Of a DNA stretch of 64,000 bases, positions 10,678 through 28,237 are shown in pieces. Below the pieces are notes generated by a model. That model ran no database searches. It was not told the DNA's origin and saw only the letters and a program-made list of their open reading frames with translations. A program made the translations under genes and the position numbers. Position 1 is the first letter of the stretch; every line of letters begins with the position of its first letter. This DNA is from Desulfomonilia bacterium (GTDB lineage: Bacteria > Desulfobacterota > Desulfomonilia > UBA1062): contig JBEKDT010000012.1 in the NCBI GenBank assembly GCA_050014195.1, forward strand, positions 32,001-96,000. Direction: 5' to 3'.

Positions 10678-10728
10678 TATGGAAGCCTTTCCCCGTAAGA
10701 CCTAAGGAACAGCGATCCTAAAGACCTC

Positions 10729-12240
10729 ATGAATCAGCATACCATAACCCTCATCCCTTCTGGCTCACAGCAATCGTTCCCTTCGGAGATGTTTCTCACA
10801 GAGGCGCTCCTGGACATGGGCATTGCCCTGAAAACCCCCTGCGGCGGCAAGGGCATATGCAATAAGTGCAAGGTTATGGTGGAAGGAGAACCCGCTGCAG
10901 TTCTTGCCTGCCAGACACGCATCACTAAGGATCTTAGGGTGCATGCAGAGCAAGAGGAGATCAACCGGGACATCCATATCCCTCATGTCCGTCCTGATGA
11001 TCACATATCAGTGGCCGTGGACATCGGGACCACCTCTGTGAGGATATCCCTGGTTGATACATCACGAAAGGCCTCGTTCGAGATCGCATCATTTCTTAAC
11101 CCGCAGCAGAGATTCGGACACGACGTCATCTCACGGATCGCAGCAGGCAGGGACCCATCCAAGCTACAGTCCCTACAAAACCTTATCAGAAAGGCCGTCA
11201 ATATCCGTCTCGGCTTGGTTCTTAATGTCATAGAACTCCCTGCAGGCATGATCGAACAGATCGTGTTCTCGGGCAACACCACCATGCTCTACCTGCTCTT
11301 CGGGCTCGACGTGGAGCCTCTGGGCAGGTATCCGTACACGACCCTGACAAAGGATTTTAAAGACCTCTTGGCAGAAGAGATCGGCCTTGATTGCATCGGT
11401 TCGGCACGTGTCCTTAGCCTGCCCGTGCTCAGCGCATTCATCGGCGCTGACCTCGTGGGCGGATTAACCATGTGCCATGACCTTGGCATCACCCGCAATG
11501 CCTTCTTCATTGATCTGGGCACCAACGGCGAGTTGTTCCTCCTGGACGGCAAGGGTAATCCGTATACAACCTCCTGTGCCATGGGCCCTGCCCTGGAGGG
11601 CATGAACATCACCTGGGGCATGACTGCCGATACCGGCGCCATCACCCATATTTATGCAGAAAAGGGAGGTCTCAGGTATCACATGATCGGCCGGGGCTGG
11701 CCTGTCGGCATCACCGGCACAGCGCTGGTGGACCTGATCGCCATCCTTCTGGACAATGGCATCATCGCACCGCATGGCGCCTTTTCCAATAATTCGGAGA
11801 AATATAATCTCTTGAGCCCGCTGTGCCTAAACCACAACGGAGAATCCAAAGGGCTTAAGCTCTGGGGAGATATCAGGCTCACCCAGAAGGATATCCGCAA
11901 TGTCCAGCTCGCCAAGGCGGCATCGCTGAGCGCTGCACGCTTCCTCCTGGAGGCCGCCGAGTTTGACCCGGGTGACGTCGAGCATGTGTTCATTGCAGGG
12001 GCCTTTGGCGAGAACCTTGATCTGGATCATTTCAGCAGGCTCGGCTTTATCCCTTGTTTTCCCAATGCCGCCTGCGAGTTTCTCGGCAATACGAGCTTGA
12101 AGGCCGCCCAGAAGGCCTGCTTTGACCCTGATTTCCTGAAACGTGCCGTTACACTAAGGGACAAAGCCCGGGAGGTGGTGCTCTCCGCGTTGCCAACCTT
12201 CCAGGATGTATTCATTCGATCACTCGAATTCCCGGCATAA
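10729..12240 (+). CDS. ASKHA-domain reductive activator of corrinoid proteins (RACo/RamA type) with N-terminal [2Fe-2S]
   Basis: CGGKGICNKC...LAC, VDIGTT, NPQ..GHDVISRI, DLGTNGE, SCAMGPALEG, TQKDIRNVQLAKAA, AGAFG. Confidence 0.92.
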   Translation: MNQHTITLIPSGSQQSFPSEMFLTEALLDMGIALKTPCGGKGICNKCKVMVEGEPAAVLACQTRITKDLRVHAEQEEINRDIHIPHVRPDDHISVAVDIGTTSVRISLVDTSRKASFEIASFLNPQQRFGHDVISRIAAGRDPSKLQSLQNLIRKAVNIRLGLVLNVIELPAGMIEQIVFSGNTTMLYLLFGLDVEPLGRYPYTTLTKDFKDLLAEEIGLDCIGSARVLSLPVLSAFIGADLVGGLTMCHDLGITRNAFFIDLGTNGELFLLDGKGNPYTTSCAMGPALEGMNITWGMTADTGAITHIYAEKGGLRYHMIGRGWPVGITGTALVDLIAILLDNGIIAPHGAFSNNSEKYNLLSPLCLNHNGESKGLKLWGDIRLTQKDIRNVQLAKAASLSAARFLLEAAEFDPGDVEHVFIAGAFGENLDLDHFSRLGFIPCFPNAACEFLGNTSLKAAQKACFDPDFLKRAVTLRDKAREVVLSALPTFQDVFIRSLEFPA

Positions 12241-12996: not shown

Positions 12997-13380
12997 TTAT
13001 ACCTTCCTGAACACCGTGCCGTTGAATGTTGCTATCAATTCATTGCCCTTAAACACTTCCATCCGGTAGAGGCCGGTACGCTTTGTCGTGTGGATCATCT
13101 TTGCCTCCGCAACTACCTTGTCGCCCACCTGTGGGGTCTTTAAAAAGGACCCGCTCACATCCAGCGCGAATGAAGGCAGGTGATCGCTGTTGGACGCAAT
13201 GGAAAAGGCGACATCGGCCAGGCTGAAGATCAGACCCCCATGCACTGCGCCATTGAAATTCAGCATTTCATCTCTGATGACAACAGAGCACCGGGAATAC
13301 CCTTTTTCAATGGTATCGACACTGATGCCGAGAAAACGGATAAAGGGGTCCTTTAATATTTTTTGAGTAATATCATCCAT
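12997..13380 (-). CDS. PaaI-family hotdog-fold acyl-CoA thioesterase
   Basis: DPFIRFLGI, LNFNGAVHGGLIFSLADVAF. Confidence 0.9.
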   Translation of the reverse strand: MDDITQKILKDPFIRFLGISVDTIEKGYSRCSVVIRDEMLNFNGAVHGGLIFSLADVAFSIASNSDHLPSFALDVSGSFLKTPQVGDKVVAEAKMIHTTKRTGLYRMEVFKGNELIATFNGTVFRKV

Positions 13381-13438
13381 CTCTGACTCATATCCTCCTA
13401 ACAGGATAATAGTCCATAGGATGGTACGATTGAAAGAA

Positions 13439-14257
13439 TCATTTTTTGCGCTGCACCCATTTCACGATCAAATCCGAGGTGATTCTGGTGGCCCATCCAT
13501 TCGTGAGGCGGTGGTTGAGGAATAACAGATTAGCCAGGATCCCCGGTATTACCAGGAATTTCTTTTTGGCAATGCCTTTGACAATGGCCTTTGCCACGGG
13601 TCCGGGCTGCAAGGTCCCGGCAAAATTCTTCAAGGCCCTGGCCTCACGCGGGATGGTACTCTCATTTGCCAGGAAGGGGGTATCTACCTCAGGTGGGCAT
13701 ACCAGGGTAACAGAGATGTCATAACATTTGAGTTCGCTCCTCAGGCATTCCGCAAAACCCACCAGTGCATATTTCGATGTCGCATAGGAGGTATAGCCGA
13801 ACATTCCCATGAGCCCTGCAGCAGAAGAGATGATCACGATCAGTCCGCCCCGGTCTTTCATGGAGGGCAGCAGGGCGGCGATCACACTTCGTGTGCCGTA
13901 GACATTGATCTTCATGAGCGAATCGAATGCCTCATGAGATATGTTCTCGAAATGATCGGCATTGCCCACACCTGCGCTGGTGATAACAATATCAGGCACG
14001 CCGAACTGCTTTACCGCATCATTCATTCTTATTTGGCAATCGTCATGGTCTGCCACATCGAGAGGCATTGCCTGGATATTCTGAGAGGGAGAGAGTCTGT
14101 GACCTTCAATATCTTTTTTTGCCTGATCGAGTTTCTCTTTGTTCCGGGCAAAGATGACGATATGAGCCCCCAAGGATGACAGCAGTCCGGCGGTTTCAAG
14201 GCCGATGCCGCTGGAACCCCCGGTTATGTACACGAGCTTGTTGGTGAAATTCTGCAT
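13439..14257 (-). CDS. SDR family oxidoreductase (3-ketodihydrosphingosine-reductase-like subgroup)
   Basis: TGGSSGIG, SAG, YxxxK (YATSK), CPPEVDTP. Confidence 0.88.
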   Translation of the reverse strand: MQNFTNKLVYITGGSSGIGLETAGLLSSLGAHIVIFARNKEKLDQAKKDIEGHRLSPSQNIQAMPLDVADHDDCQIRMNDAVKQFGVPDIVITSAGVGNADHFENISHEAFDSLMKINVYGTRSVIAALLPSMKDRGGLIVIISSAAGLMGMFGYTSYATSKYALVGFAECLRSELKCYDISVTLVCPPEVDTPFLANESTIPREARALKNFAGTLQPGPVAKAIVKGIAKKKFLVIPGILANLLFLNHRLTNGWATRITSDLIVKWVQRKK

Positions 14258-14271
14258 ATGCCCCCTTCGGT

Positions 14272-15093
14272 TTATTCAAGAGTAACTTCCTGGTTTTTCA
14301 GTGTGAAGGATTTACGGGCGAAAATCGCCGCCCCCAGGGCGCCGACGATCTGGGGGTCAACCGGCAGCGAGGTCACTTCCATATTGATGATCCTGGCAAG
14401 CGCCTTGATGAGGCCGAGGTTCTTGGCGCAACCGCCGGTGACCGTCACCTGCGGCCGTATGCCGATGCGCTTGAGCAGCGTGAAGCACCGCTTGGACACG
14501 GCGGTCTGGATGCCTGCAGCAATCTCCTCGGGCGGATTCTTTTTAGCCAGGAGGCTGATCACCTCGCTCTCGGCAAAGACGCTGCACTGGGCCGTGACCG
14601 GTATCATCCTGTTCGTCTTCAGGGAAAGTTCGGAAAACTGGTTCAGGTCCATGCGGAATATCCTGCTCATGGCCTCGAAGAACCGGCCGGTACCGGCCGC
14701 GCATTTGTCGTTCATAGCAAATTCCAGGACCGAGCCGTCGTGGTCAAGCGCAATGGTCTTCACATCCTGGCCGCCGATATCGATGATGGTCTTGATGAGA
14801 GGTTTGCAGGAGAACACGCCCATGGCATGGCAGCTGATCTCCGAGACATTCTTGTCGGCAAAGGCGACCTCGTTTCTCCCGTAGCCCGTGCCCACCAGAT
14901 AGGCGATGTCCCTGTAGCCGCCCATATCCGGGACCTGTGCACAGGCCTTCTCCAGGGAGAGAACCGAGGTCAATTCCGGATCGATCTCGCTCGGGACTAT
15001 GGAGGCGGCAACGATGGTGCCGCTTTCGTCAAGGATGACTGCCTTTCCTGTCGTCGATCCTACGTCGCATCCGCCGAAATACTTTGCTGCCAT
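14272..15093 (-). CDS. Acyl-CoA dehydratase activase (HgdC/BcrAD/BadFG ASKHA ATPase)
   Basis: GCDVGSTTGK, GTGYGR, EISCHA, DIGGQD, NDKCAAGTGRF, QCSVFAESE. Confidence 0.93.
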   Translation of the reverse strand: MAAKYFGGCDVGSTTGKAVILDESGTIVAASIVPSEIDPELTSVLSLEKACAQVPDMGGYRDIAYLVGTGYGRNEVAFADKNVSEISCHAMGVFSCKPLIKTIIDIGGQDVKTIALDHDGSVLEFAMNDKCAAGTGRFFEAMSRIFRMDLNQFSELSLKTNRMIPVTAQCSVFAESEVISLLAKKNPPEEIAAGIQTAVSKRCFTLLKRIGIRPQVTVTGGCAKNLGLIKALARIINMEVTSLPVDPQIVGALGAAIFARKSFTLKNQEVTLE

Positions 15094-15132
15094 ATCCGTC
15101 TCCCTATCGTTATGGTCTTGTGCGGCTTTTAT

Positions 15133-16443
15133 TCAGATATCAAGCATCCAGCCCTTGCCCTGCAGTCTGGCAATGGTTTTTGCGGAACTTAAGAATGTGG
15201 AACGGAACATGTCGCTCATGAGGGCCTTTTTCACCGGCAAGAGTTTCAGGAAACCGCCGATAAATGATCTCATGATTTCCTGGGTGATGCTTTCCGGATT
15301 GTCGAAGATCTGATTCTGGAGATTACCCCTCTCGAGGCTGAGCAGAATTATCCTTTCGAATGTTGTTTCCGGGTGAATGACCCTGGTTCCCCGTTGTATC
15401 ATCGCAATGGCGTCAGCCGGGCATTTCAATGCACATACGCCGCAACCCACGCACCTTTCCTCATCAACTTTGGCTTTCTTTTTCTTCAGATGTTTCGGTT
15501 CATTTGCAGAAACCAGGACAGCGGCATTGACGGGGCATGCATCAACGCATTTTCCGCACCCTTTGCACTCAGAGCCATCGATCTGTGAGATAAAATTGGA
15601 AGTGACGGCACTGTTCACGAAGCCGAACTTGTTCAGCCCGGCCAGGAAGTTGCAGCAGCATTTACAGCAGTGGCAGATGACCGTGGGGTTCCTTTTGGTA
15701 TTTTCAGCACAGAGAACCAACCCAAGCTCTCTTGAGCGGGCAAAATTTTCCAGCATCTCGGACTTGGATACCTCCCTGGCCATGTTATGCCTGATGGTAT
15801 AGTCTGCACCAATACCCAAAGTGCTGCAGTTATTCATGGGAGTATCACATTCTTTTTCGTGGTTAAGAAATTTTTCATTTCTGCAGGAACAGAGTCCGAG
15901 GCCGAGTCTATGGGAATTTTCTATGAGGGATGAGGCCTTTTCATAATCCATGAATTCGACGTATTCACCCGGCCGTATGGTTTCTTCAACAGGGATCACT
16001 CTCAATATTGCCACCTGTTCATCTCTTGAGAAATTGGCCGGGTAAAACTCATGGAAATATTCCTGAAACAGTTTCGCGCATTCCTTCTTGTCATGATTGT
16101 TCCCGGTTCTCATCATGGTAAACTCGAATATCCCGATGAGGAGGGGAGATGGCATGTAGTAATACTGGCCGTCATTCTCATTATACAGATCCAACACCAA
16201 ACCTTTGCTGCACATCATATCCAGTATGGTTTGCAACCGTGTCTTTTCAATCTTGGCTATCCCGGCAATTCTCTCGAGTGATGAGAGGGTATAAGGCATC
16301 TTGATCAGCAGTTCTGCTTCTTCAGTGGTATACACCTTTTTAAGGATGCTCAGTAATGTCTCATTCCAGGGTGCCCTCACGGTCAGGTTATCGATCTTTT
16401 CTCCCAGTCGGCGATAGACATCTCCTTCATTTCTTCTGATCAT
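15133..16443 (-). CDS. Multi-[4Fe-4S] ferredoxin-domain protein with N-terminal wHTH-like region
   Basis: CSCR, CHCCKCCC, two ferredoxin motifs CKGCGKCVDACP and CVGCGVCALKCP. Confidence 0.85.
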   Translation of the reverse strand: MIRRNEGDVYRRLGEKIDNLTVRAPWNETLLSILKKVYTTEEAELLIKMPYTLSSLERIAGIAKIEKTRLQTILDMMCSKGLVLDLYNENDGQYYYMPSPLLIGIFEFTMMRTGNNHDKKECAKLFQEYFHEFYPANFSRDEQVAILRVIPVEETIRPGEYVEFMDYEKASSLIENSHRLGLGLCSCRNEKFLNHEKECDTPMNNCSTLGIGADYTIRHNMAREVSKSEMLENFARSRELGLVLCAENTKRNPTVICHCCKCCCNFLAGLNKFGFVNSAVTSNFISQIDGSECKGCGKCVDACPVNAAVLVSANEPKHLKKKKAKVDEERCVGCGVCALKCPADAIAMIQRGTRVIHPETTFERIILLSLERGNLQNQIFDNPESITQEIMRSFIGGFLKLLPVKKALMSDMFRSTFLSSAKTIARLQGKGWMLDI

Positions 16444-16453: not shown

Positions 16454-17965
16454 TTATTGATCGAGGCGCTGCGCCTTCATCACGTTCTCCATGAAAAATT
16501 CCACCTGGTTCATCATGCCGTCCTGGGATACGATGCGGGGATCGAGCAGGTCGTAATCGAGGATGAGCAGGGGTATCTTCATCCCGCGGCACTTCTCCCT
16601 CAGGATGCCGTTCATTGCCTGCCCGCTCTTACAGCCCACGTGGTTTGCCACCCACACCATATCGAGATTGAACTGTCTGTACATGCGGAAGATATCATCC
16701 AGGTAGTTCTCCGCAGGACCCCTGGTGTGACGTACCATGGGCCCCTGCATGATGGTGTTGGCCAGGCCGCGGAGCATGGTATCGGGTGTCGAGGTGTCTA
16801 TGGGGGCGTGGTGGTGATAGGTCATGCTGTCGTTGATGAGGGTCACGCCATAGGCACGCTCGCTCTTGTTGAAGATGTCGATGAAATGGGGGAAGGGCGG
16901 GTTCCAGAGAACAGCCCTATACCTCTCGTTTTTTGTGGCGGGAATCCCAGCAGTGAGGTTTTTCCGTGCCATGGCAACCAGAGATTCGAAGTGTTTTATA
17001 GATAGCTTGTACCCCGCAAAGAGATTGAAATGCCACATATGGCTCAGGAACACGGCTTCAGCGGCCAGCGGGGCGGGTTTCATCCGGATCATGTCCCACA
17101 GCTCGAGCTCAAGCTCCAGCATGCGGTTGCGTCCTTCGCAGATCTCCTTCAGGCGGTCCCAGTCCATGCGGCCGGGTGTGTGCTCCTCGAGCCATGCGAT
17201 CATGCCCTTGAGGTCGTCGGCAAAGAGCTTATCCGCCCTTTCGTTGTAGAAATTAGACGGGACATCGAGGCGATAGATGGGTGTGCCATGCTCCCTGTGT
17301 ATGAGGGAATAGGAAGCCATGCCGGCGTCGCAGGGCATATTGGAGCTCACCATGGCAATGCCTTTGGGCATATGACCCTTGAGGACCATGCCCACGGTGG
17401 CCTTTGGCAGGCTGCAGGCATCGGGATTGATCCCGGCGTTTTCCGCCTCGTCTATATATTTCAGGTCGCTCTGTGCTGCCAATATGGGCAGGAGTATCCC
17501 CATGGCCTCCAGCAGCCAGACCTTCAGGCCCATGGCACGGGCGATGTCCGGCGGCACCATCTCCTCGTTTATGATCAGGAGGTCAGGATGGTAGAACACA
17601 TCCTCCAGGTTCTCTGCGAGCGTGAAAGCGATCGTGTATATGGTCATGCAGATGGACTTGAGGTATAAACCGCTCCGCCCCCTGGAAAGACGGCGCATCA
17701 GGCCGGTCACCCTGAGGAGATGCAGTATCCAGGGATAGCCTACAAGCACCCGGATGATACCGATGGGGCCGCGCTTGAAAAGAAGCCTGATGACGAACTT
17801 CAGGATAACCGCCCATATGAGGGCCCAGTATTTTGCATAGATCAATGAGTCTTTGAGGTTTTTCGATTCAAGGATATATCCGGCCAGGGAGTTCCGGAGA
17901 AAGCCCTTCACCTGGCCCGGCAGCCTCATAAACAGAGACTTTGCGTTTGCGGCACTCACGGTCAT
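16454..17965 (-). CDS. 2-hydroxyacyl-CoA dehydratase family subunit (HgdA/BcrB-like) with hydrophobic N-terminal extension
   Basis: Three cluster Cys motifs DACSLPK, MPCDAG, VGCKS; IPLLILDYDLLDPR. Confidence 0.85.
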   Translation of the reverse strand: MTVSAANAKSLFMRLPGQVKGFLRNSLAGYILESKNLKDSLIYAKYWALIWAVILKFVIRLLFKRGPIGIIRVLVGYPWILHLLRVTGLMRRLSRGRSGLYLKSICMTIYTIAFTLAENLEDVFYHPDLLIINEEMVPPDIARAMGLKVWLLEAMGILLPILAAQSDLKYIDEAENAGINPDACSLPKATVGMVLKGHMPKGIAMVSSNMPCDAGMASYSLIHREHGTPIYRLDVPSNFYNERADKLFADDLKGMIAWLEEHTPGRMDWDRLKEICEGRNRMLELELELWDMIRMKPAPLAAEAVFLSHMWHFNLFAGYKLSIKHFESLVAMARKNLTAGIPATKNERYRAVLWNPPFPHFIDIFNKSERAYGVTLINDSMTYHHHAPIDTSTPDTMLRGLANTIMQGPMVRHTRGPAENYLDDIFRMYRQFNLDMVWVANHVGCKSGQAMNGILREKCRGMKIPLLILDYDLLDPRIVSQDGMMNQVEFFMENVMKAQRLDQ

Positions 17966-17986
17966 TTCAATCCTCCCGTCCGCACA

Positions 17987-19156
17987 TCATTTCCCCATGC
18001 TCTCGATGAAGGCCTGGACCCGGGTCCGCAGCTGGCCTTCCGAGCCCATACGGTACTCCCGCTCCAGCTTCAGCACGGGTATCCCCTCTTTTCGCAAGGC
18101 GCTGACCAGCGGCATCGAATCAATGCCCCAGAGGTCGCAGAACTTGATGATCTCGATGACAACGCCGTCCACGTTGTATTCCTTTGCGGTCTCGATGATG
18201 GTCGTAAGCCTCCGATCGAAATCCTCCATCATCCGCGGGCACAGTGTCTTTTTGAAGGAGTGTTCGGCCAGGGTCCTGATGGGGTCGCCACTCATCTCTA
18301 TGGGCTTGAGTCCGGGAATGAAACCGGTGCAGAGACGGTCTGCCACCACAAGCCCGCCCTGCGACTCGATGACATGGATGAATTCAGGATCATGAAGGTG
18401 GCCGCCCACCATCAGTAACCGGGCCCGGTAATTTTTAATGCCATCGCGCTTTTCGATCTCTGTGCGGAAATCGAGGATTGTGGGGAGGATGAGGTCCTTG
18501 GGTGACGCCAGGGAGGTCATGAGCAGGGCGTGGAATTCGGTGCCGGTGATGGGCGGGTCCGGTCTTTTTCTCAGATCACCGATGGATTGAATGACATCAG
18601 CAAAACTGTTCCACTCGGAAATGGCCTTCATGAGGGAGCCATCGCTCATGTCAACGCCGAAGTGCGAGGAGAGCCTGTCTGCGAGCATCCTGAGCTCCTC
18701 GGCCAGCCAGACCGTAGTGACCTCGTTCACCTTGCGGGGCACATCGAGGATATGTGAGAATGCCGGTTTTTTGAGGTACTCGAGGTTGTCATAGAGCCGC
18801 TGCATGTGCGCGCACGAGGGGACGAATACCCACCCCTGTATCAGGTCGAAACGGTCGTCCATGGCGAATTCGAGGAGGCTGCGTGCATAGGAGCAGATGA
18901 AGTTGGAAAGATAGTTGTCCGCAATTTCAGTGCCTGCAATCCCCGGGGCACGCAGGCGCACCGGGAAAAGCCTGTCCGCCATGAGAAGGGCCTCGGGAAC
19001 GAACGAGCAGGAATACCCGATGGGTATGCGGCCGTCAGCCGAGGCCTGCTCCACCAGGCTGTTCAGCGGGCTTTCAAGAAGCCCTTCGAATACGCGCATC
19101 GTCTTGCTCTTTGTCGTCATGACACTCCGCCCGGCACCATGGAGTTTCTCAGGCAT
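17987..19156 (-). CDS. 2-hydroxyacyl-CoA dehydratase family subunit (HgdB/BcrC-like)
   Basis: GYSCSFVPE, FICSYARS, SCAHMQR, KFCDLW, GQLRTRVQAFIE. Confidence 0.88.
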   Translation of the reverse strand: MPEKLHGAGRSVMTTKSKTMRVFEGLLESPLNSLVEQASADGRIPIGYSCSFVPEALLMADRLFPVRLRAPGIAGTEIADNYLSNFICSYARSLLEFAMDDRFDLIQGWVFVPSCAHMQRLYDNLEYLKKPAFSHILDVPRKVNEVTTVWLAEELRMLADRLSSHFGVDMSDGSLMKAISEWNSFADVIQSIGDLRKRPDPPITGTEFHALLMTSLASPKDLILPTILDFRTEIEKRDGIKNYRARLLMVGGHLHDPEFIHVIESQGGLVVADRLCTGFIPGLKPIEMSGDPIRTLAEHSFKKTLCPRMMEDFDRRLTTIIETAKEYNVDGVVIEIIKFCDLWGIDSMPLVSALRKEGIPVLKLEREYRMGSEGQLRTRVQAFIESMGK

Positions 19157-19221: not shown

Positions 19222-19992
19222 TCACGGCAGCACCTCCATTTTTGTGAGGACATGTGCAATCACTGCCAGGGCCGGTGAGGTGTCGGGGATCCCGGTCAAG
19301 GACATTCCCTTGAAATCGAAATCCCTGATGCTTTCGTCTTCTGCGATCCACCCATAGATATCAAGGTCTGTCCTGCCCCTGATGTCATCCACCTCGGCTT
19401 GGCACCTCACCCTGTTGAGAACGAGCCCCATGCTATAGAAGTCAACCGCCTTCTTCTCGTTCGCAACAAGGGCTATGGTGCCGGCCACACAGACGCCTTT
19501 TGCCGAGGTGTCCGAGACCAGGACCAGGTGGTCCACTTTCTTCATGACCCGCCTGTTGATCTGCTCGATGCCGGCCTCGCCGTCGATGAGCACGATGTCG
19601 AACTTCCCTGCCAGATCGCCGATGATGTCCCTGAGGAGGTTGTTCACCTTGCAGAAGCACCCCTCGTCCTCAGGCCTGCCGATAGCCAGCAGGGCATATC
19701 CGTCACGCTCCTCAATGGCATCGAACACCTCATAGTCCAGGAGTTTCAGTGTCTCCTTATTTCCCAGGGATTCACCCTTTTGAATTCTTGTAATCAGTCC
19801 TTTCCTGATGTCATCCACGGTCTTCTTCACCGTTATACCCAGGGCTGTTGCCAGGCCCACAGCCGGGTCGGCGTCTATGGCCAGGATCTTCCGGTCATTC
19901 CTTTGTGAGAGCAGCTTCACCATAAGGGCGGAGACGGAGGTCTTGCCCACACCGCCCTTGCCGCACATTGCCAAGATTTTCGTGTCAGCCAT
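19222..19992 (-). CDS. CooC/AcsF-like ATPase (nickel-insertion family)
   Basis: Deviant Walker A GKGGVGKT, IDADP, CxC motif EGCFC, DGEAGIEQINR. Confidence 0.85.
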   Translation of the reverse strand: MADTKILAMCGKGGVGKTSVSALMVKLLSQRNDRKILAIDADPAVGLATALGITVKKTVDDIRKGLITRIQKGESLGNKETLKLLDYEVFDAIEERDGYALLAIGRPEDEGCFCKVNNLLRDIIGDLAGKFDIVLIDGEAGIEQINRRVMKKVDHLVLVSDTSAKGVCVAGTIALVANEKKAVDFYSMGLVLNRVRCQAEVDDIRGRTDLDIYGWIAEDESIRDFDFKGMSLTGIPDTSPALAVIAHVLTKMEVLP

Positions 19993-20722
19993 GCAGTGCC
20001 CTTTTTGTTTTCTCCATGAGCCTATCCCTCATGCCCTTAAGCCCGTCGGCCTCGTCACAGACATCTTGATAAGCACAGCTCCGGCATTCGAAATCCATCT
20101 CCGAGGCCATCTTGTTCATGGCAGCGATGATCTTCTCTGCAGGGGCTGTGATCTCCTTGATCCTGCTCACATCATGGGTACTGGAAGTGAAGAAGATCAC
20201 CTCGACGGCTTTCACATAGGGCAAACCTTTGAACAGGCACATGAGGGCCGAGCCTAGGACCTGTGCGGAAAATCCCTGCAGGAGAACATCGCGGCCGATC
20301 CTGCACCACTCCCTCATGTACTGGGACACAGCCCTCATCATGAACCCCTTGAGGTCAAGGTCGTATCTCAGGAAATCCATTTCCTTATGCCTGTCATAGG
20401 CATTGTCTTCACTAAAGCCTCCCACCCCGGCCAGGACTACTTTGCCGAAGGGGAGGCTGTCGCCCATACTCTCCGGGAAATCAGGGCCCACCAGGGTTAT
20501 CCTGCCATCTGCAATGCTTGAGAGGTTCTCTGTCCACAGCAGGCAGGACACGGACTCCCTTTCCGGGCTGCCCAGCTCGAGCCCCATGTGCTCTTTCAGG
20601 ACGATGTTCATGCCGTGGCCGCCCGGCCATGGTTTTTTATCATCAGCAGGCCAGGACCTTTTGTGAGGCTGCTCATCGAGAAATGAATGCAGTGTGGTTA
20701 TTATTTTTTCAAAGAGTTCCAT
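19985..20722 (-). CDS. Truncated acetyl-CoA synthase (AcsB/CdhC) middle-domain-like protein with C-terminal CxxCx5C
   Basis: DGRITLVGPDFPE..LPFGKVVLAG..GFMMRA..W.R resembles the ACS middle domain; ends CRSCAYQDVCDE. Confidence 0.6.
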   Translation of the reverse strand: MELFEKIITTLHSFLDEQPHKRSWPADDKKPWPGGHGMNIVLKEHMGLELGSPERESVSCLLWTENLSSIADGRITLVGPDFPESMGDSLPFGKVVLAGVGGFSEDNAYDRHKEMDFLRYDLDLKGFMMRAVSQYMREWCRIGRDVLLQGFSAQVLGSALMCLFKGLPYVKAVEVIFFTSSTHDVSRIKEITAPAEKIIAAMNKMASEMDFECRSCAYQDVCDEADGLKGMRDRLMEKTKRALHG

Positions 20723-20725: not shown

Positions 20726-21529
20726 TCATGCCGTCCGTATCTTACCGTTACCGTCTGCAGCCTGGCGGGCGATGAGTGCCGCGCCCAGGGCGCCGATGAT
20801 CTGCGGGTCGGTTGTCATCTTCCTGAGCTTCACGCCGAGGGCCTCCTCAAGGGCCGCGAACATGCCGGAGTTTTTCGCCACCCCTCCGGTCATGGTGATC
20901 TCGCTGTCCAACTCTATGCCCCTGGCCAGCGCCGCCACCCGGTGGGCTAGAGACTTGTGCAGACCGCTGACGATCTCCGGCAGTTCCTTGCCCGCATTGA
21001 TCAGTGAGATGATCTCGGTTTCTGCAAAGACCACGCACTGGTTTGATATGGACAACGGGGCTTTCGCCCGGGAGGAGATCTGCCCCATGTCTTCGAGGGC
21101 AATGCCCATGGCCCCGGCCATGACCTCCAGGAACCTGCCGGTGCCGGACGCGCACCGGTCGTTGTAGGCGAAGCGGATGATATTGCCTGCATCGTCCAGC
21201 CTGATGGCCTTGGCATCCTGGCCGCCGATGTCGATCACCATGTGCACCTCAGGCATGAGCCACTGGGCGCCTTTACCATGGCATATGATCTCGGATTCCA
21301 CAGAATCGGCAAATGGAACGGAGTTCCTGCCGTAGCCCGTGCCCACGCAGTATGCGATGTCTTTCATTGAAAGCCCTGCCTTCTCGAGGGCCTTATCCAT
21401 CACCTCCCGGGCCGACTCCTCGGGCTCGGGTTTTGCGAATATTACATGCGAGGCAAGCACATCGCCTTTCTTCATGATGAGGGCCTTGGCACTCAATGAC
21501 CCGACATCGCATCCCGCAATAAACATCAC
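20726..21529 (-). CDS. Acyl-CoA dehydratase/aryl-CoA reductase activase (ASKHA ATPase)
   Basis: GCDVGS, GTGYGR, DIGGQD, NDRCASGTGRF, QCVVFAETE. Confidence 0.92.
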   Translation of the reverse strand: MMFIAGCDVGSLSAKALIMKKGDVLASHVIFAKPEPEESAREVMDKALEKAGLSMKDIAYCVGTGYGRNSVPFADSVESEIICHGKGAQWLMPEVHMVIDIGGQDAKAIRLDDAGNIIRFAYNDRCASGTGRFLEVMAGAMGIALEDMGQISSRAKAPLSISNQCVVFAETEIISLINAGKELPEIVSGLHKSLAHRVAALARGIELDSEITMTGGVAKNSGMFAALEEALGVKLRKMTTDPQIIGALGAALIARQAADGNGKIRTA

Positions 21530-22308
21530 TTCCCCCCCATCTTCTCTTTGGCGAACACCGCAGCCCCAAGTGCACCCATGACCTGAGGGTCCAGCTTAAG
21601 CCTGCGCATGGGCACACCCAGCTGTTTTTCCATGGCCCCCACAACGCCGGCGTTTTTTGCAACACCGCCTGTCATGCACACATCCTTCTCAACACCCACA
21701 GACTTGGCCAGGATCGCGACCCTGGCAGCCATGGCCTGATTGATGCCGGAAGCAAGGTCCGCCTTTGATGTATTCGTGTTCAAATGCATGATAACCTCGG
21801 CCTGGGCCCAGGCCGTGCAAGTGGCGGCTAAGGTGATGGGGTTTCTGGCCTGTTCGGATAGCTTGCCCAGATCCTCCAGCTCAAGACCGAGGAGCTTTGC
21901 CATGACCTCCAGGAATCTTCCCGTGCCAGAGGCGCACTTGTCATTGGTGACGAACCTGACGATGTTCCCTGTCTCGTCGATACGGATGGCCTTGCAGTCC
22001 TGCCCGCCGATATCGATGATGGTCCTCACCGACGGCAGCAGCCAGTGTGCGCCCTTGGCATGGCAGGCAATCTCGGAGACGGCCTTGCCCACAAAGGGTA
22101 TCCGCTCCCTGCCGTAGCCGGTTCCCACGCAGAACCCGATATCATCCATGGTGAGCCCTGCGGTGTTCATCGCCATATCCATAACTTCAGAAGCGGATTT
22201 TTCAGGATTGAAGGATGAACGGATCAGCGCATGGCTGATGACCCTGGTGTTGTTGAGGATGACTGCCTTGGTGGTCAGTGATCCGACGTCACAGCCTGCC
22301 ACGATCAT
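21526..22308 (-). CDS. Acyl-CoA dehydratase/aryl-CoA reductase activase (ASKHA ATPase)
   Basis: Probable start MIVAGCDVGS overlapping the upstream stop; NDKCASGTGRF, TCTAWAQAE. Confidence 0.92.
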   Translation of the reverse strand: MIVAGCDVGSLTTKAVILNNTRVISHALIRSSFNPEKSASEVMDMAMNTAGLTMDDIGFCVGTGYGRERIPFVGKAVSEIACHAKGAHWLLPSVRTIIDIGGQDCKAIRIDETGNIVRFVTNDKCASGTGRFLEVMAKLLGLELEDLGKLSEQARNPITLAATCTAWAQAEVIMHLNTNTSKADLASGINQAMAARVAILAKSVGVEKDVCMTGGVAKNAGVVGAMEKQLGVPMRRLKLDPQVMGALGAAVFAKEKMGGK

Positions 22309-23711
22309 GACATAATCCCCCTTACGTGCATGAACTCGCTGATCTTGTCCACACAGTGCTCCCATGAGGCGACCCTATCGTCGAAGGCATCGGCAAAGAG
22401 CAGCATGGTGGGCAGGCCTTCACGCTCGCAATCGCGCTGGATCAGCTTGTTGGCACCCCAGCTGTTGCGGCACCCCATGCTCCCCACATAGACCAGGAAA
22501 TCGGGCTTCATGATCTTTGACATGAAGAGGAGATCATCCCGCCACATGCCTTTCGCGTCATACGGCCCCCTGAGCTGCTTGACCATGGGCATGCGCGAGT
22601 TGATATCCACAAGCGAGTCGATCATGGTGTCCAGGTTCGTGGTGTCTATGTGGTAGGTCTCGTCTTCGCGGCCCTTTGCATACTCGTGGCCTTCATTCCA
22701 GAAGTTGAATATGAGCGTGGGCAGGAGGCTGATATCCTGGGAGTCAATCCATTCCCAGAACCTGGCATCCGTGGTGTAGTGGTCGATGTAGCACATCAGG
22801 AGCCGTGCCCGTTCCTTTTTCGAGCTCGTGCCTGCATACCCTTGTGCTGCATTTTCACGAACAACCTTGAGCATGGATTCCAGCACTGCGGTGTACGATT
22901 TCCTGCCCGGCATGCTAAGCCTTCCGGCGTAGATGAACAGGGTGAAGATGGGCGGGACAGGGCATGGCTTGAGTCTCATGAGGTCATAGAGTTCGATTGC
23001 GAGCTCGTCCTGGCGCTTCTGCTCTACAAGGAGATCCCGGAGTTTGTCCTCGTTCAGGCGTGAGCCTGACTGCTCCTCGATAAAGGAGATCAGGGCCTTG
23101 TAGTCCTTCCGGTGATACTCGTCGATCCTCTTACCCGTGAGCTTTGCAGGGAAGTTGAGCTGGAACATGGGGAGGTCAAGATATGATGAGAGAAACTGGA
23201 CCGCATTGGCATTCGTGTCGCAGATGCCGGGCGATCCGCAGATGAGAAAATCGGGCTTCTCGGCAAGGCCTGCCAGGTATGCCCCGAACGACCCGCGCTG
23301 GGCCGAGCAGGAGGTCTCGGTAAACCCCACCTCGCAGCAGTAGTCCATGTACTCTGCCGTACCTTTCCTCAGGACAAGGGTCCCGAATACGGTCATGATC
23401 TCGGCCCAGGCAGGCACCACGTTGTCAAAGGCGAAGAACAGGTGTTTCGCCGAGACAAAGGTGCCGAGACACAGCTTCTTCCCCTGAGCATGCGCCGTCA
23501 TGACGTCGGTGAGGTATTCTGCTGCCATCTTCATGAAAAGCACGCCAGGCTCTCCATGCCGTAACATCGCACCCATGACGTTCTTGAAGTTCGGTATGAC
23601 CCCTTTCAGGCTTTCATACTCCTTCTGGGTCCCATCAAGTGCAGTTGCAGCGGCACTGATTGTAGTCCAGAGCATCCAGTCATAATTATACTCGCGCGTT
23701 TCCTTCTTCAT
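22305..23711 (-). CDS. 2-hydroxyacyl-CoA dehydratase family subunit (HgdA/BcrB-like)
   Basis: SCSAQRG, ICDTNAN, MGCRNSW, DAFDDR. Confidence 0.85.
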   Translation of the reverse strand: MKKETREYNYDWMLWTTISAAATALDGTQKEYESLKGVIPNFKNVMGAMLRHGEPGVLFMKMAAEYLTDVMTAHAQGKKLCLGTFVSAKHLFFAFDNVVPAWAEIMTVFGTLVLRKGTAEYMDYCCEVGFTETSCSAQRGSFGAYLAGLAEKPDFLICGSPGICDTNANAVQFLSSYLDLPMFQLNFPAKLTGKRIDEYHRKDYKALISFIEEQSGSRLNEDKLRDLLVEQKRQDELAIELYDLMRLKPCPVPPIFTLFIYAGRLSMPGRKSYTAVLESMLKVVRENAAQGYAGTSSKKERARLLMCYIDHYTTDARFWEWIDSQDISLLPTLIFNFWNEGHEYAKGREDETYHIDTTNLDTMIDSLVDINSRMPMVKQLRGPYDAKGMWRDDLLFMSKIMKPDFLVYVGSMGCRNSWGANKLIQRDCEREGLPTMLLFADAFDDRVASWEHCVDKISEFMHVRGIMS

Positions 23712-23725
23712 AAACTTTTCCCTCC

Positions 23726-23968
23726 TCAGACCCCCGACATACTTAAGTGTGCCCCGGACTTTATCCGCTGTATGTAGAGCTTGGAACGGTCCTTTAAGAC
23801 CGTGAGGTCAGTCTTGCGCACGATGTATTCCAGAGTCATAACCGCTGATGCAGGAAAGAGGGTGAGCGCATCGATGGCCCGCTGCCTCTCGGCAAGCATC
23901 CTTGAGTCATCCAGGGCGATGTCGCGTAACACCTCTATGGCTATTGTTTCTCTATCTATCTGGCACAT
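23726..23968 (-). CDS. Small hypothetical helical (HEAT-like) protein, 80 aa
   Basis: AAGGAGG RBS before MCQIDRETIAIEVLRDIALDD...; fills the gap between the two dehydratase subunits. Confidence 0.65.
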   Translation of the reverse strand: MCQIDRETIAIEVLRDIALDDSRMLAERQRAIDALTLFPASAVMTLEYIVRKTDLTVLKDRSKLYIQRIKSGAHLSMSGV

Positions 23969-23978
23969 TGAAACCTCC

Positions 23979-25112
23979 TTATGAAATTCTCTCCATGAAG
24001 GCATCGAGGCGCATCCTGATCCTGCCTGTCTCCACCAGGGGACCATACTCCCTTTCGATGCGTAAGCATGGGATCCCTGCCGCCTCGAGGTCCCGCTCAA
24101 GCACCCCGTTCTCCGAGCCATGGAGGTCGCAGAAACGCACGTTCTGGAGGATCACGCCGTCCACTGAGGCCTTCTTCACGAGGTCCATGATGTAGGAGCG
24201 CCGGTCCTTGTAGTAGCCGAGCATGCGGGGGCAGACGCTGTTGCTCAGGTAGTGCGATGCAAGGGTATGGATCGGGTCTGCCTTCTCGTCCACCAGGTTT
24301 GCATAGGTGCGCGACCCGAAGCATACGGTGTCTGCCACGACAATGGCTCCGCCATCCTCGATCAGCCTGATGAAATCCACGTCGTCGTTTGCACTCCCGA
24401 TGAGCATGAGACGCTTCTTACGGTCTGATACGGATGGCGACCTCTCCAGGCCTGCAATGATATCTGTGAGCATGGTGCCCCACTCTTCACGCGGTATGGC
24501 ATGGCCGGCAATAAGGATGGCCATGGCATCCGAACCCGTGATGGGCACGTCGTTACGGTATCTGAGCTCGTCGAGTTTCTTCAGGAGCATTCTCCCCTGG
24601 TTGTAGACCTTGATGGATTTCTTCAGGGCCTTGTCCGTAATATCAACCTTGAAATGCCTTTCAAGGGTAGCGATCATGCCCTTGAGCTCTTGGGCGTAAA
24701 ATTCAATACTGTAGTCCACCGACTTGTGGGGCACGGAGAAGAATTCATAGTAACCCGGCAGGGTGCCGGGGTAGTCTTCGCTCGCCTTTCTCCAGCACTC
24801 CTCGAGCCTGCGCATGGAGTCGCAGCCGTTACTGATGATGGCGCCGTCTAAAAACCTGTACGACCCCTGTCCTGCGAGCTGCAGCATGCACTTGGGCAGG
24901 CTGCAGTTCACCGGACCGAAGTATGAGTCGCCGATGGAGACAGACGTGGTTCCTACACCCCGTAATCTGAACGGCAGCAGCCCTGCGGCATGGAGTATCT
25001 CTTCGGGTATGAAGGTGCACGAGTAGCCCACGACCTTGCCCTTGCCCTTCTTCCACTTCTCCACAAATTCGTTGTCCAGGGTGGTTGCAATTTTTTTGAG
25101 TTTTTCTATCAT
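23979..25112 (-). CDS. 2-hydroxyacyl-CoA dehydratase family subunit (HgdB/BcrC-like)
   Basis: VGYSCTFIPEEILHAAG, NCSLPK, GCDSMRR, RFCDLHG, GRIRMRLDAFME. Confidence 0.9.
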   Translation of the reverse strand: MIEKLKKIATTLDNEFVEKWKKGKGKVVGYSCTFIPEEILHAAGLLPFRLRGVGTTSVSIGDSYFGPVNCSLPKCMLQLAGQGSYRFLDGAIISNGCDSMRRLEECWRKASEDYPGTLPGYYEFFSVPHKSVDYSIEFYAQELKGMIATLERHFKVDITDKALKKSIKVYNQGRMLLKKLDELRYRNDVPITGSDAMAILIAGHAIPREEWGTMLTDIIAGLERSPSVSDRKKRLMLIGSANDDVDFIRLIEDGGAIVVADTVCFGSRTYANLVDEKADPIHTLASHYLSNSVCPRMLGYYKDRRSYIMDLVKKASVDGVILQNVRFCDLHGSENGVLERDLEAAGIPCLRIEREYGPLVETGRIRMRLDAFMERIS

Positions 25113-25115: not shown

Positions 25116-26399
25116 CTACCCCCTGCTGCCTGCGGCCAGGGCTGTTTTTAAGGAATCCATGGCCTCCTTGTGTTCCGGACTCGTGTAGCCGTCATCAGGG
25201 CTTATGAGCTCGCTGAAGCCTTTGATGATGAAAGGCATCATTTCAACAGCCAGCGGCTTGATGGCTTCCACAATATCCGGAATCAGCCACCGGGCCGTTT
25301 TCTTGACCTCTTCAGGGCTCACGGAATCCACAACTCCGCTCAAGGCGTTGCTTAGAATGTCCGGTTTGACTTCATGGATCCGGTTGGCGACCCTGCATGC
25401 GGTGTTCACGAGCCCGGCGATCTCGTAGGTGTCAAGGTCCGACATGCCCTCGGATACGGCGGACTTCAGACCGACGGGATCGATCTGTTCTATGACGCCC
25501 AGTCTACGGGTTCTTGCCTTGATGTCCGAGGTCTTCACCAGCCCCATTGATGCCAGGTAGGATAAGGTGATATCTGGGTTGTCGGAGAGCGCATCCGCCA
25601 TAGCATTTGCCATGGCCTCCCTGTCTTCGGCGAATATGATGCGGATCTTTTTTACCAGCTCCGGGTCCATCTCGGGCAAGCAGTCATGGAGCAGGTCCGT
25701 AAGGTAGATCTGGAATAGCGGCTTGCCGCCCTTTCCGAGCAGGAGACTCCCGGTGTGGACCCTCCGGATGACCTCGCGGACGGCATTGATGAGCTTCGCA
25801 GTATCCGTACCGTTGATGCCCTTTACCATAGAGAGCATGATGTCTGCGAGCAGGTCGGGACCTATTTTCTCCTCAATGGGGATCAGGATCTCACGCGAGG
25901 CCTTTATGAAGGTGTTCATGAGCGGGATGATGGTTGCCACCAGGGTCCCGACCTTTGCCGGGTATTTCCAGAGCTGCTCGTTGAAGGCCTCAATAGTCTT
26001 GATGACACATGGCCCTGAACCCTCGACCATCTCCCTGATCTCGCCGAAGTCGGTATATTTAAGGAAGTTATGTATGGTATCCCCTCGCGCCCCGGCATGG
26101 CAAAGCGGGTCATCCGCATGATCGGTATTGATCTTTTTCGCCCATGTGGTCAGGAACCTTCCGACATCAGCCGATATGGCCTTGCCGTTCCAATCCTTAC
26201 CGGGCTGTAACACCTTTGATACTATCCAATTGACAGGGGAGGCGATCTTGCCCCTGAAACGACCTTTTTTTGCCCATTCTTCGATCAATTCCTTGACAAC
26301 CGCAGAGAGAAAGGTCCTCGTGCCGGTTGCCCGGATAGTCTCCGTGATGATCTTTGCCGAGAGCCGGGCAAGTTGGTCTTGATTATCTAAAGTATTCAT
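25116..26399 (-). CDS. Hypothetical alpha-helical protein (paralog of 27146 and 27796 ORFs)
   Basis: 427-aa ORF with RBS, co-directional in the operon; shares a P..N.FIKA..E...I..K..P.LL segment with its neighbours. Confidence 0.8.
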   Translation of the reverse strand: MNTLDNQDQLARLSAKIITETIRATGTRTFLSAVVKELIEEWAKKGRFRGKIASPVNWIVSKVLQPGKDWNGKAISADVGRFLTTWAKKINTDHADDPLCHAGARGDTIHNFLKYTDFGEIREMVEGSGPCVIKTIEAFNEQLWKYPAKVGTLVATIIPLMNTFIKASREILIPIEEKIGPDLLADIMLSMVKGINGTDTAKLINAVREVIRRVHTGSLLLGKGGKPLFQIYLTDLLHDCLPEMDPELVKKIRIIFAEDREAMANAMADALSDNPDITLSYLASMGLVKTSDIKARTRRLGVIEQIDPVGLKSAVSEGMSDLDTYEIAGLVNTACRVANRIHEVKPDILSNALSGVVDSVSPEEVKKTARWLIPDIVEAIKPLAVEMMPFIIKGFSELISPDDGYTSPEHKEAMDSLKTALAAGSRG

Positions 26400-26419: not shown

Positions 26420-27067
26420 CTATTTCAGCCCTACAAGTGCCTTTCTGCCTGCTTCGGTGAGGTATGATTCGAACATCAGGTTGCTCATGGAGGTAAGGGT
26501 TTGGATCGCCTCATCCCGGGTAAACTTCTTTTCCATGAGGTAGCTGTGTCCGAGGTACATGGCCATGCCGACCACGGAATAGGCCAGGGTATGGGGATTC
26601 ACCCCTTCAATGACACCGACATTTAGCCAGCTCTGGATATCCTCGGCCAGGTCCTGGGCGAGATCGCTGTAGTAGCTCCACACATTATCATCGAATTCTT
26701 CATCCACACCGAAGCTTCCCCTGAGCAGGATGAGGAACTGCTGCTGGTGGCTGTCAATGTAATCGAAATAGGCGGAGTAGGTCTCGTTCAGCTTTGAGAG
26801 CCTGTCGGTCTGGTCCCAGATATTCACCGGGTTTCTGACCTCCTTGATCCGGGTCCTGAACGTACTGAAATTATGCCTGGTGAGCTGGGCAAAAAGATCA
26901 CGCTTATCCTTGAAATAATTATAGAACGTGCCGGCGGACATGCCCACCGCCTTCACGATATCCATGATCTGGGTGTTGTGGTAGCCGTACTGGCTGAACA
27001 GCTCCTCAGCAGCCTCGATGATCATCTCTCTCATGTATTGCCGCTTTTTTTCAGCAAGTCTTGGCAT
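26420..27067 (-). CDS. TetR/AcrR family regulator
   Basis: AAEELFSQYGYHNTQIMDIVKAVGMSAGTFYNYFKDKRDLF. Confidence 0.92.
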   Translation of the reverse strand: MPRLAEKKRQYMREMIIEAAEELFSQYGYHNTQIMDIVKAVGMSAGTFYNYFKDKRDLFAQLTRHNFSTFRTRIKEVRNPVNIWDQTDRLSKLNETYSAYFDYIDSHQQQFLILLRGSFGVDEEFDDNVWSYYSDLAQDLAEDIQSWLNVGVIEGVNPHTLAYSVVGMAMYLGHSYLMEKKFTRDEAIQTLTSMSNLMFESYLTEAGRKALVGLK

Positions 27068-27089
27068 ATGTAGTATGATCCTTTATGAT

Positions 27090-27148
27090 GCAGGAGCGCC
27101 TTCAGGCGCGGCTAACCATTTTCATATCGCGGCTAAAGCCGCTCCTTA
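27090..27148. repeat. Degenerate GTAG-family REP doublet (REPIN-like)
   Basis: GCAGGAGCGCCTTCAGGCGCG...TCGCGGCTAAAGCCGCTCCT; homologous to 34549-34605. Confidence 0.7.
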
Positions 27149-27796
27149 CATTTTTCCAAATCGTTTCTTTATCCTGTTCCGTACGAGGTTCCATGTCCAC
27201 GAGGTGAGGTGCCAGTTCTGGTCAAGGAATGCCCCGGCAAGGGTATGGGTGGCCTTGCCGACCTCCTCGCCATCAATGTTTCTCAGCACCTGAGTAATGA
27301 ATGTGCTGAAGGCCTGCGGATTGTTTTGGGTTATCGCATTTATTAACCTCGCCAGGCCATTGATGGCCCCTGCCTTGATCTTGGGGCCTGAAGAGAGCAG
27401 GAACCCTGTGGCGGCCTGCCTCAGTTCCGGCGAGGCCTTCCACTGGGAAGCGGCCAGCTCCGCCCATGCCTTTCCGCACTGTCTAAGGGCATCCTTGTCG
27501 ATGTCGTCATACAGGCTTGTAAGGAATGCCTTCAGCATCTCAGGGGGATATTTGTCCTTGAGCTGGACGGCAAACTCGGTGGATGCCTTTACGAGGACGT
27601 TTATAAACATCGGCAGCGAGCTGATAAGGCCGAAAAATACCTCGGGGTCTTCACCCATGAGGGTCTTCACGAAAGAGCTGCCGGTGTGCGGGTCGACTTC
27701 ATTGAGGTTTGTACGGAGGATATCCTTGAACAGGGGTGAGCGAATGATCCCTTTTATGATACCGGAACGGTTGTGAGTTAAGGAATCGCTATGCAT
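27146..27796 (-). CDS. Hypothetical alpha-helical protein (paralogous family)
   Basis: Start MHSDSL overlaps the upstream TAA (TAATG); aligns by eye with the 27796 ORF over about 90 aa. Confidence 0.8.
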   Translation of the reverse strand: MHSDSLTHNRSGIIKGIIRSPLFKDILRTNLNEVDPHTGSSFVKTLMGEDPEVFFGLISSLPMFINVLVKASTEFAVQLKDKYPPEMLKAFLTSLYDDIDKDALRQCGKAWAELAASQWKASPELRQAATGFLLSSGPKIKAGAINGLARLINAITQNNPQAFSTFITQVLRNIDGEEVGKATHTLAGAFLDQNWHLTSWTWNLVRNRIKKRFGKM

Positions 27797-28233
27797 TATA
27801 TGTTCTCCTCCCTCCGTGCAGCCCGGTCTTGAATCACCTGCCATACTGCAATAAATAGCGGCGCCAGATCATTCTTAAGTTCTCTGGCTTCGGCGATGAG
27901 GTCGGCCAGTGTCTCCTTGTCGATCTCATCCAGGAGCGATTCGACGAAACTCGCGAGCAGGGGAGGGGGGAACTTCTCCCGTATCTGGACGATGAGCTCA
28001 TGTCCGGCCTTGATAAAGCAGTTCGCAAGAACAGGCAGAGCCCCTGCCACAGCCAGCGGCACCTCGATGTCCCTGCCCAGCAGTGTACGCACGAGATGCG
28101 GGCTGTTCCCCGGGTCGATACTCTTTAAGAAAAGGCGCAGGCTGTCCTTGAACGCTGTCTTTGCCAGCAGCTCATCCAGAACCCTGCTCTTGGATTCAAT
28201 GAATCCCGTGTTTGTGTTTTCTTCCATGGACAT
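27796..28233 (-). CDS. Hypothetical alpha-helical protein (paralogous family)
   Basis: FKDSLRLFLKSIDP...VRTLLGRDIEV...LPVLANCFIKA...KFPP.LL. Confidence 0.8.
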   Translation of the reverse strand: MSMEENTNTGFIESKSRVLDELLAKTAFKDSLRLFLKSIDPGNSPHLVRTLLGRDIEVPLAVAGALPVLANCFIKAGHELIVQIREKFPPPLLASFVESLLDEIDKETLADLIAEARELKNDLAPLFIAVWQVIQDRAARREENI

Positions 28234-28237
28234 AACC

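Follow-up and report, generated by a model that had tools for sequence, protein, structure and literature searches.

An overlapping gene pair encoding the A2 domain of acetyl-CoA synthase and a CooC-type ATPase recurs in benzoyl-CoA reductase-like operons

The mini-ACS and CooC gene pair

The 64,000-nt stretch of contig JBEKDT010000012.1 from a Desulfomonilia bacterium analyzed here (positions 32,001 to 96,000; below, the window, to the whole of which our coordinates refer) carries a single long gene cluster on the minus strand, from 30769 down to 12997, and within it two overlapping genes for a small protein related to acetyl-CoA synthase (ACS), which we call mini-ACS, and for a CooC-type ATPase (Table 1). 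The ATG of the CooC gene lies within the last codons of the mini-ACS gene, an overlap of 8 nt (ATGGCTGA), while 3 nt separate the end of the preceding BcrAD-type ATPase gene from the mini-ACS start and an HGD-D gene starts 65 nt downstream of CooC, and the pair is flanked on both sides by BzdNO-like Fe-S modules with BcrAD-type ATPases. The original prediction, made from the letters of this stretch, had set the two overlapping genes between activator and dehydratase genes and had seen no carbon monoxide dehydrogenase (CODH) or full ACS in the window. Both reading frames and their neighbors are as it described, and tblastn searches for CODH and for the A1 and A3 domains of ACS gave no match within the window; a complete CODH/ACS cluster lies on the same contig, outside the window, ~58 kb from the pair.

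By sequence and fold, the mini-ACS is the A2 (middle) domain of ACS. It matches Pfam CdhC (PF03598) with 38.0 bits (cut-off 24) over residues 40-181 and aligns to positions 309-459 of the 705-position bacterial AcsB model, that is, to its middle domain. The NCBIfam ACS models align to it only via positions 18-172 (archaeal) or 309-471 (bacterial), and their whole-protein thresholds are missed (44, 33, 31, and 28 bits versus cut-offs of 372, 356, 800, and 809). A phmmer search of the PDB returned ACS chains only (9c0s_E with E 1.3e-10; residues 334-476 of 1oao). The AlphaFold2 (AF2) model, based on an alignment of 116 family members, has a pLDDT of 95.2, and all 23 of its Foldseek matches at E <= 0.001 are ACS. 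In VIA, the model was superposed on 18 listed ACS entries with Z 15.5-20.0 over 160-173 residues (rmsd 1.9-2.6 Å), residues 27-207 falling on Moorella ACS 316-495, and the next unrelated chain reached Z 3.7. The claim that this protein resembles only the middle domain of ACS is thus borne out, and the structural likeness on which it depended is clear in both programs.

The cysteine motif CRSCAYQDVC occupies residues 213-222 and is followed by 23 further residues that form a helix, so the protein does not end in this motif as had been stated. The family profile can be aligned to the genome's own ACS through residue 220, with the DCxxC of the family over the SCLLC of ACS. In that ACS, the CxxC continues as x8-C-x9-C and an SCGC stands further along, whereas the mini-ACS has only C213, C216, and C222 (C-x2-C-x5-C). 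Judged from this alignment, the three cysteines are placed where ACS begins the [4Fe-4S] motif of its A-cluster, and the mini-ACS is without the rest of the ligand set, namely, a fourth cysteine for the cluster and Cys-Gly-Cys for nickel, and without the A3 domain. Here, we take it from the general ACS literature that four cysteines bind the [4Fe-4S] cluster and that Cys-Gly-Cys serves the two nickels. The CxxCx5C motif is found within the last 70 residues in 116 of the 119 full-length representatives (222-280 aa) among 150 listed. The family alignment (labeled A2) was selected for this motif, so the invariance of its cysteines is by construction, but that of its other conserved columns is not.

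In ACS, acetyl-CoA is held mainly on the A2 domain, with Trp405 stacked on the adenine and with Arg383, His386, and Gly399 at the acetyl end, as given in the accessible part of a recent account (10.1101/2024.08.05.606187). The R-x2-H-x12-G-x5-W spacing of this site also occurs in the genome's own ACS, and we mapped its residues onto the mini-ACS from the spacing and from the alignment to that protein. On this mapping, Trp405 would correspond to W139, a position with tryptophan in 101 of 116 aligned members; R141, two residues further on, is R in 113 of 116. Gly399 would fall on S133, in a column that is mostly P or S, and His386 and Arg383 on L118 and M115, both in hydrophobic columns. This suggests that nucleotide binding is kept in the mini-ACS and that ACS-type acyl transfer is lost, such transfer being unlikely because the residues of the acetyl/thiol site (Arg383 and His386) have been replaced by hydrophobic ones.

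The best solved relative of the partner ATPase is CooC1 (3kje, E 3.7e-13). Both hallmarks of SIMIBI maturation ATPases are present, the signature-lysine P-loop GKGGxGKT (here GKGGVGKT) and a CxC that is aligned to the CYC of CooC1, in agreement with the predicted CooC type and intact CxC (GCFC). C112 and C114 are invariant in all 28 CooCs that are partners of a mini-ACS (28/28).

Distribution of the pair and the tree of its ATPase

Homologues of the mini-ACS are numerous, with 365 proteins at E <= 0.001 among 907 candidates in one search and 524 clusters (50% identity) at E <= 0.001 in an exhaustive one, 348 of them at E <= 1e-10. In the sources, they are named "hypothetical protein" or, in JGI, "CO dehydrogenase/acetyl-CoA synthase beta subunit." The hosts are Thermodesulfobacteriota genomes from peat, soil, and sediment; at least one member, a hypothetical protein of a Tepidibacter genome, comes from Bacillota, so the family reaches past Thermodesulfobacteriota. 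Fused forms were sought in longer proteins, without a match at E <= 0.001 in 1415 candidates, though this negative is weak evidence. Among 401 sampled genomes of the phylum, mini-ACS genes occur at 48 places in 34 genomes (table count), and the remaining matches are full-length ACS.

The neighborhood of the pair is conserved. Public genomes supplied 21 close loci (58-94% identity). In 20 of them, the BcrAD pair stands directly upstream of the mini-ACS gene and CooC downstream; the 21st ends at a contig edge and has another upstream gene. The overlap of the mini-ACS and CooC reading frames is conserved as well. Among 30 loci of the phylum sample viewed with 1.5-kb flanks, HGD-D or BcrAD genes are present in 26 and CooC in 21, and with flanks of ~10 kb around 20 wider loci, an HGD-D pair plus BcrAD appears in 19 and CooC in 14. 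Across the whole phylum sample, a CooC match at E <= 1e-30 lies within ~2.1 kb of 26 of the 48 mini-ACS genes (tables cross-read by hand). The pair is also found beside the four-gene module alone (L058, L065, L066, and L068) and beside the three-gene module alone (L056, L060, L063, L064, L071, and L072), and therefore its occurrence follows the enzyme type, not either flanking module by itself. Neither ACS A1, ACS A3, nor CODH had a tblastn match in the 71 related loci, where genes for the corrinoid iron-sulfur protein were not separately searched for. The pair is, therefore, a conserved companion of operons of the dehydratase/reductase type. It does not accompany Wood-Ljungdahl clusters, to which the original prediction had allowed that it might be confined.

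The genome has four CooC-type genes, all with the P-loop and GCxC: the partner of the mini-ACS, two beside the CODH/ACS cluster ~58 kb away, and one on another contig, behind a module of BzdN-like, BzdO-like, ATPase, and ATPase genes without a mini-ACS. We used a maximum-likelihood tree of 49 CooCs from which one very long branch was omitted; a quick tree that keeps this branch agrees. Twelve further loci, in genomes or places without mini-ACS, contain CooC-like genes of 36-45% identity; eight of these adjoin HGD-D and BcrAD genes, two adjoin an acyl-CoA dehydrogenase gene, and the remaining two have neither as a neighbor. The mini-ACS profile found nothing at E <= 1 in these twelve loci and the second operon of the genome (13 loci), with 20/20 controls recovered. 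In the tree, 13 CooCs linked to Wood-Ljungdahl genes fall on one side of a branch (100/98), and all CooCs linked to benzoyl-CoA reductase (BCR)-like operons stand apart from the rest (99/96). The 23 mini-ACS-linked CooCs form one group (100/98), and the nine CooCs of BCR-like operons only group together (99/94) as its sister clade. Within the mini-ACS-linked clade also fall two CooCs whose genomes have mini-ACS genes without an adjacent CooC. The tree is a clustering and no proof of co-evolution, as kin share labels. The original prediction had named the mini-ACS itself as a possible target of the ATPase; the single clade of mini-ACS-adjacent CooCs speaks for this client, and the sister clade without a mini-ACS weakens it.

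The flanking modules and the corrinoid genes

The modules on both sides of the pair have the cysteine pattern of class I BCRs, with a six-Cys subunit, a three-Cys subunit, and two ASKHA ATPases. Six cysteines are invariant in each of the BzdN-like subunits (43/43 and 19/19 orthologues), three in each of the BzdO-like subunits (26/26 and 22/22), and two in each BcrAD-type ATPase. In BzdNO, six cysteines hold an [8Fe-9S] cluster and three an aqua-[4Fe-4S] cluster, according to the part of the report available (PMC11971306). The NCBIfam scores are far under the cut-offs (bzdN 154 versus 454, bcrB 16 versus 487, bzdQ 212 versus 380), and the double_cubane match to module 1 is also under its own; on these scores, we regard the modules as BCR-like and not as BCR. 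The second target proposed in the original prediction, a heterometal site on a dehydratase-family subunit, was rejected, as the orthologue census of the HGD-D subunits showed no invariant cysteine beyond the six- and three-Cys patterns. The genome (4.2 Mb) has twenty HGD-D family genes, about ten pairs, which is an unusually large BCR-/dehydratase-type set.

Read along the minus strand, the cluster begins with two acyl-CoA dehydrogenase genes, the two paralogues, TetR, and the 427-aa protein, continues with module 1, the two BcrAD ATPases, mini-ACS, and CooC, and closes with the module 2 pair, the ferredoxin-domain protein, the third BcrAD ATPase, the SDR, and the thioesterase. The gene order of the cluster head is kept in related loci, and the SDR and thioesterase genes are also found in L016. 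The 427-aa protein is conserved in 20 loci, where it immediately precedes the four-gene BCR-like module. It has no match in Pfam or NCBIfam and only unnamed clusters in the Atlas, and its AF2 model (pLDDT 69) gave no Foldseek match at E <= 0.001, only BAR-like helical noise.

Several other genes deserve mention. The overlapping 232- and 145-aa reading frames have no family match and are a conserved paralogous pair, with homologues 31-41% identical to each other. In addition to two 4Fe-4S motifs, the ferredoxin-domain protein of 436 aa has an invariant C257-x-C-C-x-C-C-C run and, upstream of this run, four more invariant cysteines (10/10 orthologues). Ahead of the second BCR-like module of the genome stand genes for an aldehyde:ferredoxin-oxidoreductase-like protein and an acyl-CoA ligase. 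The genome's true ACS, outside the window (L001; G000:C12:108965-112429), has at least 972 codons in the locus and a 1172-aa open frame; the usual length of ACS is ~730 aa, and this overlong protein may be fused to a downstream Wood-Ljungdahl component.

Table 1. Genes and features of the window

Feature	Coordinates	Strand	Basis or traits
Mini-ACS (245 aa, P0001)	19985..20722	-	A2 (CoA-binding) domain, linker helix, C213-x2-C216-x5-C222, C-terminal helix
CooC-type P-loop ATPase (256 aa, P0002)	19222..19992	-	GKGGVGKT and G111-C-F-C114
Two BcrAD/BzdPQ-type ASKHA ATPases (279 and 267 aa)	20726..22365	-	Pfam BcrAD_BadFG, 202 and 193 bits
Module 1, BzdN-like (377 aa) and BzdO-like (468 aa) HGD-D subunits	22305..25112	-	Pfam HGD-D
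All-alpha conserved protein without known family (427 aa), preceding module 1	25116..26399	-	
Module 2, second BzdN-like (389 aa) and BzdO-like (503 aa) pair	16454..19156	-	Pfam HGD-D, Cys counts
Cys-rich ferredoxin-domain protein (436 aa) and third BcrAD-type ATPase (273 aa)	14272..16443	-	Family matches, Cys counts
Ferredoxin-domain protein alone (436 aa)	15133..16443	-	
Cluster head: TetR regulator, two paralogous proteins without family match (232 and 145 aa), two acyl-CoA dehydrogenase-family genes	26420..30769	-	Pfam
Overlapping 232- and 145-aa reading frames alone	27146..28233	-	
Cluster tail: SDR and 4HBT thioesterase	12997..14257	-	Pfam
O-demethylase-like operon: two corrinoid proteins, two URO-D proteins, homocysteine-S-methyltransferase-family protein, RACo activase	5156..12240	+	
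Second full-length RACo-type corrinoid activase (643 aa), toward the CODH/ACS end of the contig	58161..60092	-	

Corrinoid genes occur near the pair in two forms. In the window, an O-demethylase-like operon lies tail to tail with the cluster, 31 bp from its end. B12-binding_2 was hit three times in the whole genome, once in an 811-aa open frame that is a candidate MetH-like protein, and the window operon looks like its only corrinoid methyltransferase operon. This operon was not found in the related loci. In four of the 21 close loci (L004, L006, L008, and L021), mini-ACS and CooC are separated by a URO-D-family gene and a gene with a B12-binding domain, and stops and starts overlap; in L006, the two additional genes occupy 10731-12571. 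An intron or RNA element had been considered for this 1.8-kb gap, but Rfam was empty there and the gap is two genes. A URO-D gene also follows the mini-ACS gene in the distant loci L059, L069, and L043, which makes seven URO-D-bearing loci (four of 21 close, two of 20 wider, and L043). The corrinoid and URO-D proteins of the window are only 21-29% identical to the inserted ones. The predicted link of the mini-ACS to the neighboring corrinoid proteins is weakened, as the window operon is not conserved with the cluster, but the insertions in four related loci keep a methyl-carrier role conceivable.

Possible roles of the pair and comparison with known systems

The reading we favor, though tentatively, is that the pair is a dedicated ACS- and CooC-derived accessory of BzdNO-type ATP-driven Fe-S acyl-CoA enzymes, in which the mini-ACS would be matured by its CooC. 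The pair would descend from ACS and its CooC/AcsF-type maturase. The mini-ACS would bind the CoA part of an acyl-CoA and carry a three-cysteine metal center, either a [4Fe-4S] cluster in which an iron is left open or a site that bears nickel. The ATPase of its own CooC clade would use ATP to load or repair this center, in the manner of AcsF on ACS, and the loaded protein could then act as an auxiliary subunit of the neighboring reductase modules, handling CoA esters or passing electrons. We count in favor of this reading the A2 identity by sequence and fold, the cysteine motif, the conserved W and R of the CoA site, the conserved neighborhood, the single clade of mini-ACS-linked CooCs, the 8-nt gene overlap, and the two CooC genes that the Wood-Ljungdahl cluster of the genome has of its own.

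Several observations weigh against it. The acetyl-end residues of the ACS site are hydrophobic in the mini-ACS. No CooC match lies within ~2.1 kb of 22 of the 48 mini-ACS genes in the phylum sample; some of these are at contig ends, and most belong to two families of large genomes with several copies of both genes. The second BCR-like module of the genome (G000:C6:185757-190873; L078:7757-12873) has its own CooC-like gene and no mini-ACS, and such operons suggest that CooC-type ATPases can serve without a mini-ACS. Finally, the [8Fe-9S] and [4Fe-4S] clusters of BzdNO formed in E. coli without dedicated helpers, as described in the portion of PMC11971306 available.

The sister clade of CooCs in BCR-like operons without a mini-ACS, including the second operon of the genome, means that the enzyme itself may be the client. 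It leads to another reading, which we consider unlikely but worth keeping in view, that both proteins are assembly or repair factors outside the working enzyme, with CooC building or mending a BzdN/BzdO-like cluster such as the double-cubane [8Fe-9S] and the mini-ACS serving as a scaffold or adaptor added by some lineages. The BzdN-like subunits have exactly the six invariant cysteines expected for [8Fe-9S] (by the available text of PMC11971306), but the same source, with its cluster formation in E. coli, counts against this reading too. The genome has 20 HGD-D genes versus two BCR-linked CooCs and one mini-ACS, and therefore most such enzymes manage without the pair. Moreover, a scaffold needs no conserved CoA-site tryptophan and arginine.

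It is also conceivable, at a lower level of likelihood, that the mini-ACS works in its own right as a CoA-binding [4Fe-4S] subunit or electron donor and receives its cluster from the housekeeping Fe-S machinery, that CooC acts elsewhere in the operon, and that the shared enzyme is their sole link. Each gene is found without the other beside BCR-like modules, and three cysteines are the usual ligands of an open-iron [4Fe-4S] cluster in BzdO and HadB (available part of PMC11971306). However, the CooC tree splits by the presence of mini-ACS (100/98), the mini-ACS-linked clade takes in two CooCs that stand alone, from genomes whose mini-ACS genes stand alone too, and the overlap of the two reading frames is conserved. 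Participation of the mini-ACS in corrinoid-dependent methyl transfer, moving a methyl or acyl group between a URO-D methyltransferase with its corrinoid protein and a CoA ester, appears improbable: the insertions in four of 21 close loci, the URO-D genes of the three distant loci, and the apparently sole corrinoid methyltransferase operon of the genome 31 bp away would fit it, but most loci have no such genes, the window proteins are only 21-29% identical to the inserted ones and their operon was not found in the related loci, the corrinoid protein docks on the A1 and A3 domains of ACS and not on A2 (10.1101/2024.08.05.606187, in its accessible part), and the mini-ACS lacks the ACS nickel site to which the methyl group is passed.

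Within the favored reading, in which the pair is a dedicated accessory of the reductase modules, we regard it as doubtful that the CooC-loaded three-cysteine site is a nickel-bearing (Ni-Fe-S or Ni-thiolate) center next to the bound acyl-CoA. If true, such a center would give widespread BCR-like radical enzymes a second active site of organometallic type, thioester C-S or C-C chemistry might take place there or, in the URO-D/corrinoid lineages, methyl transfer, and ACS-derived nickel enzymology would operate outside one-carbon metabolism. To our knowledge, ACS and the CooC/AcsF maturases have been known only from CO and CO2 metabolism, and we know of no need of class I BCRs and their relatives beyond Fe-S clusters from general machinery. 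The presence of a conserved piece of ACS, with a CooC clade to itself, in hundreds of BCR-like operons points either to an unrecognized metal site or subunit in these enzymes of anaerobic carbon degradation, which are hard to study, or to a new use of the machinery for nickel insertion. Main texts searched in the literature yielded no paper describing the pair, and those of the Desulfatiglans TRIP_1 and BzS1 benzene papers do not mention a CooC or ACS-like partner of these enzymes.

Two possible counterparts were set aside. The thn operon of naphthalene degraders has neither a CooC nor an ACS-like gene in its gene table (PMC12016498, as far as its text was available), and the isoprene reductase IsrA is linked to nickel chaperones but, by the available part of PMC10134865, belongs to another family and uses HypAB. 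BzdNOPQ with its double-cubane protein resembles the flanking modules in the six-Cys BzdN-like, three-Cys BzdO-like, and two-Cys ASKHA ATPase subunits, but the modules score far under all NCBIfam equivalog cut-offs, and the accessible text of PMC11971306 describes no ACS-like or CooC-like partner.

With ACS (AcsB/CdhC; 1oao, 3git, 9c0s, and 9g7i), the mini-ACS shares the A2 fold, the W and R of the CoA site, the CxxC at the start of the A-cluster motif, and a CooC-type ATPase gene alongside. Unlike ACS, it is without A1 and A3, has three cysteines instead of four with x5 instead of x8 spacing, lacks Cys-Gly-Cys, has its acetyl-site residues replaced, and is never beside CODH/ACS genes in the examined loci. 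The ATPase has in common with CooC1 (3kje) and with AcsF, reportedly the nickel-insertion ATPase for ACS, the deviant Walker A motif GKGGxGKT, a CxC at the aligned position, and a similar length, but its clade is separate from the 13 sampled Wood-Ljungdahl-linked CooCs (99/96, 100/98) and is encoded in BCR-like operons.

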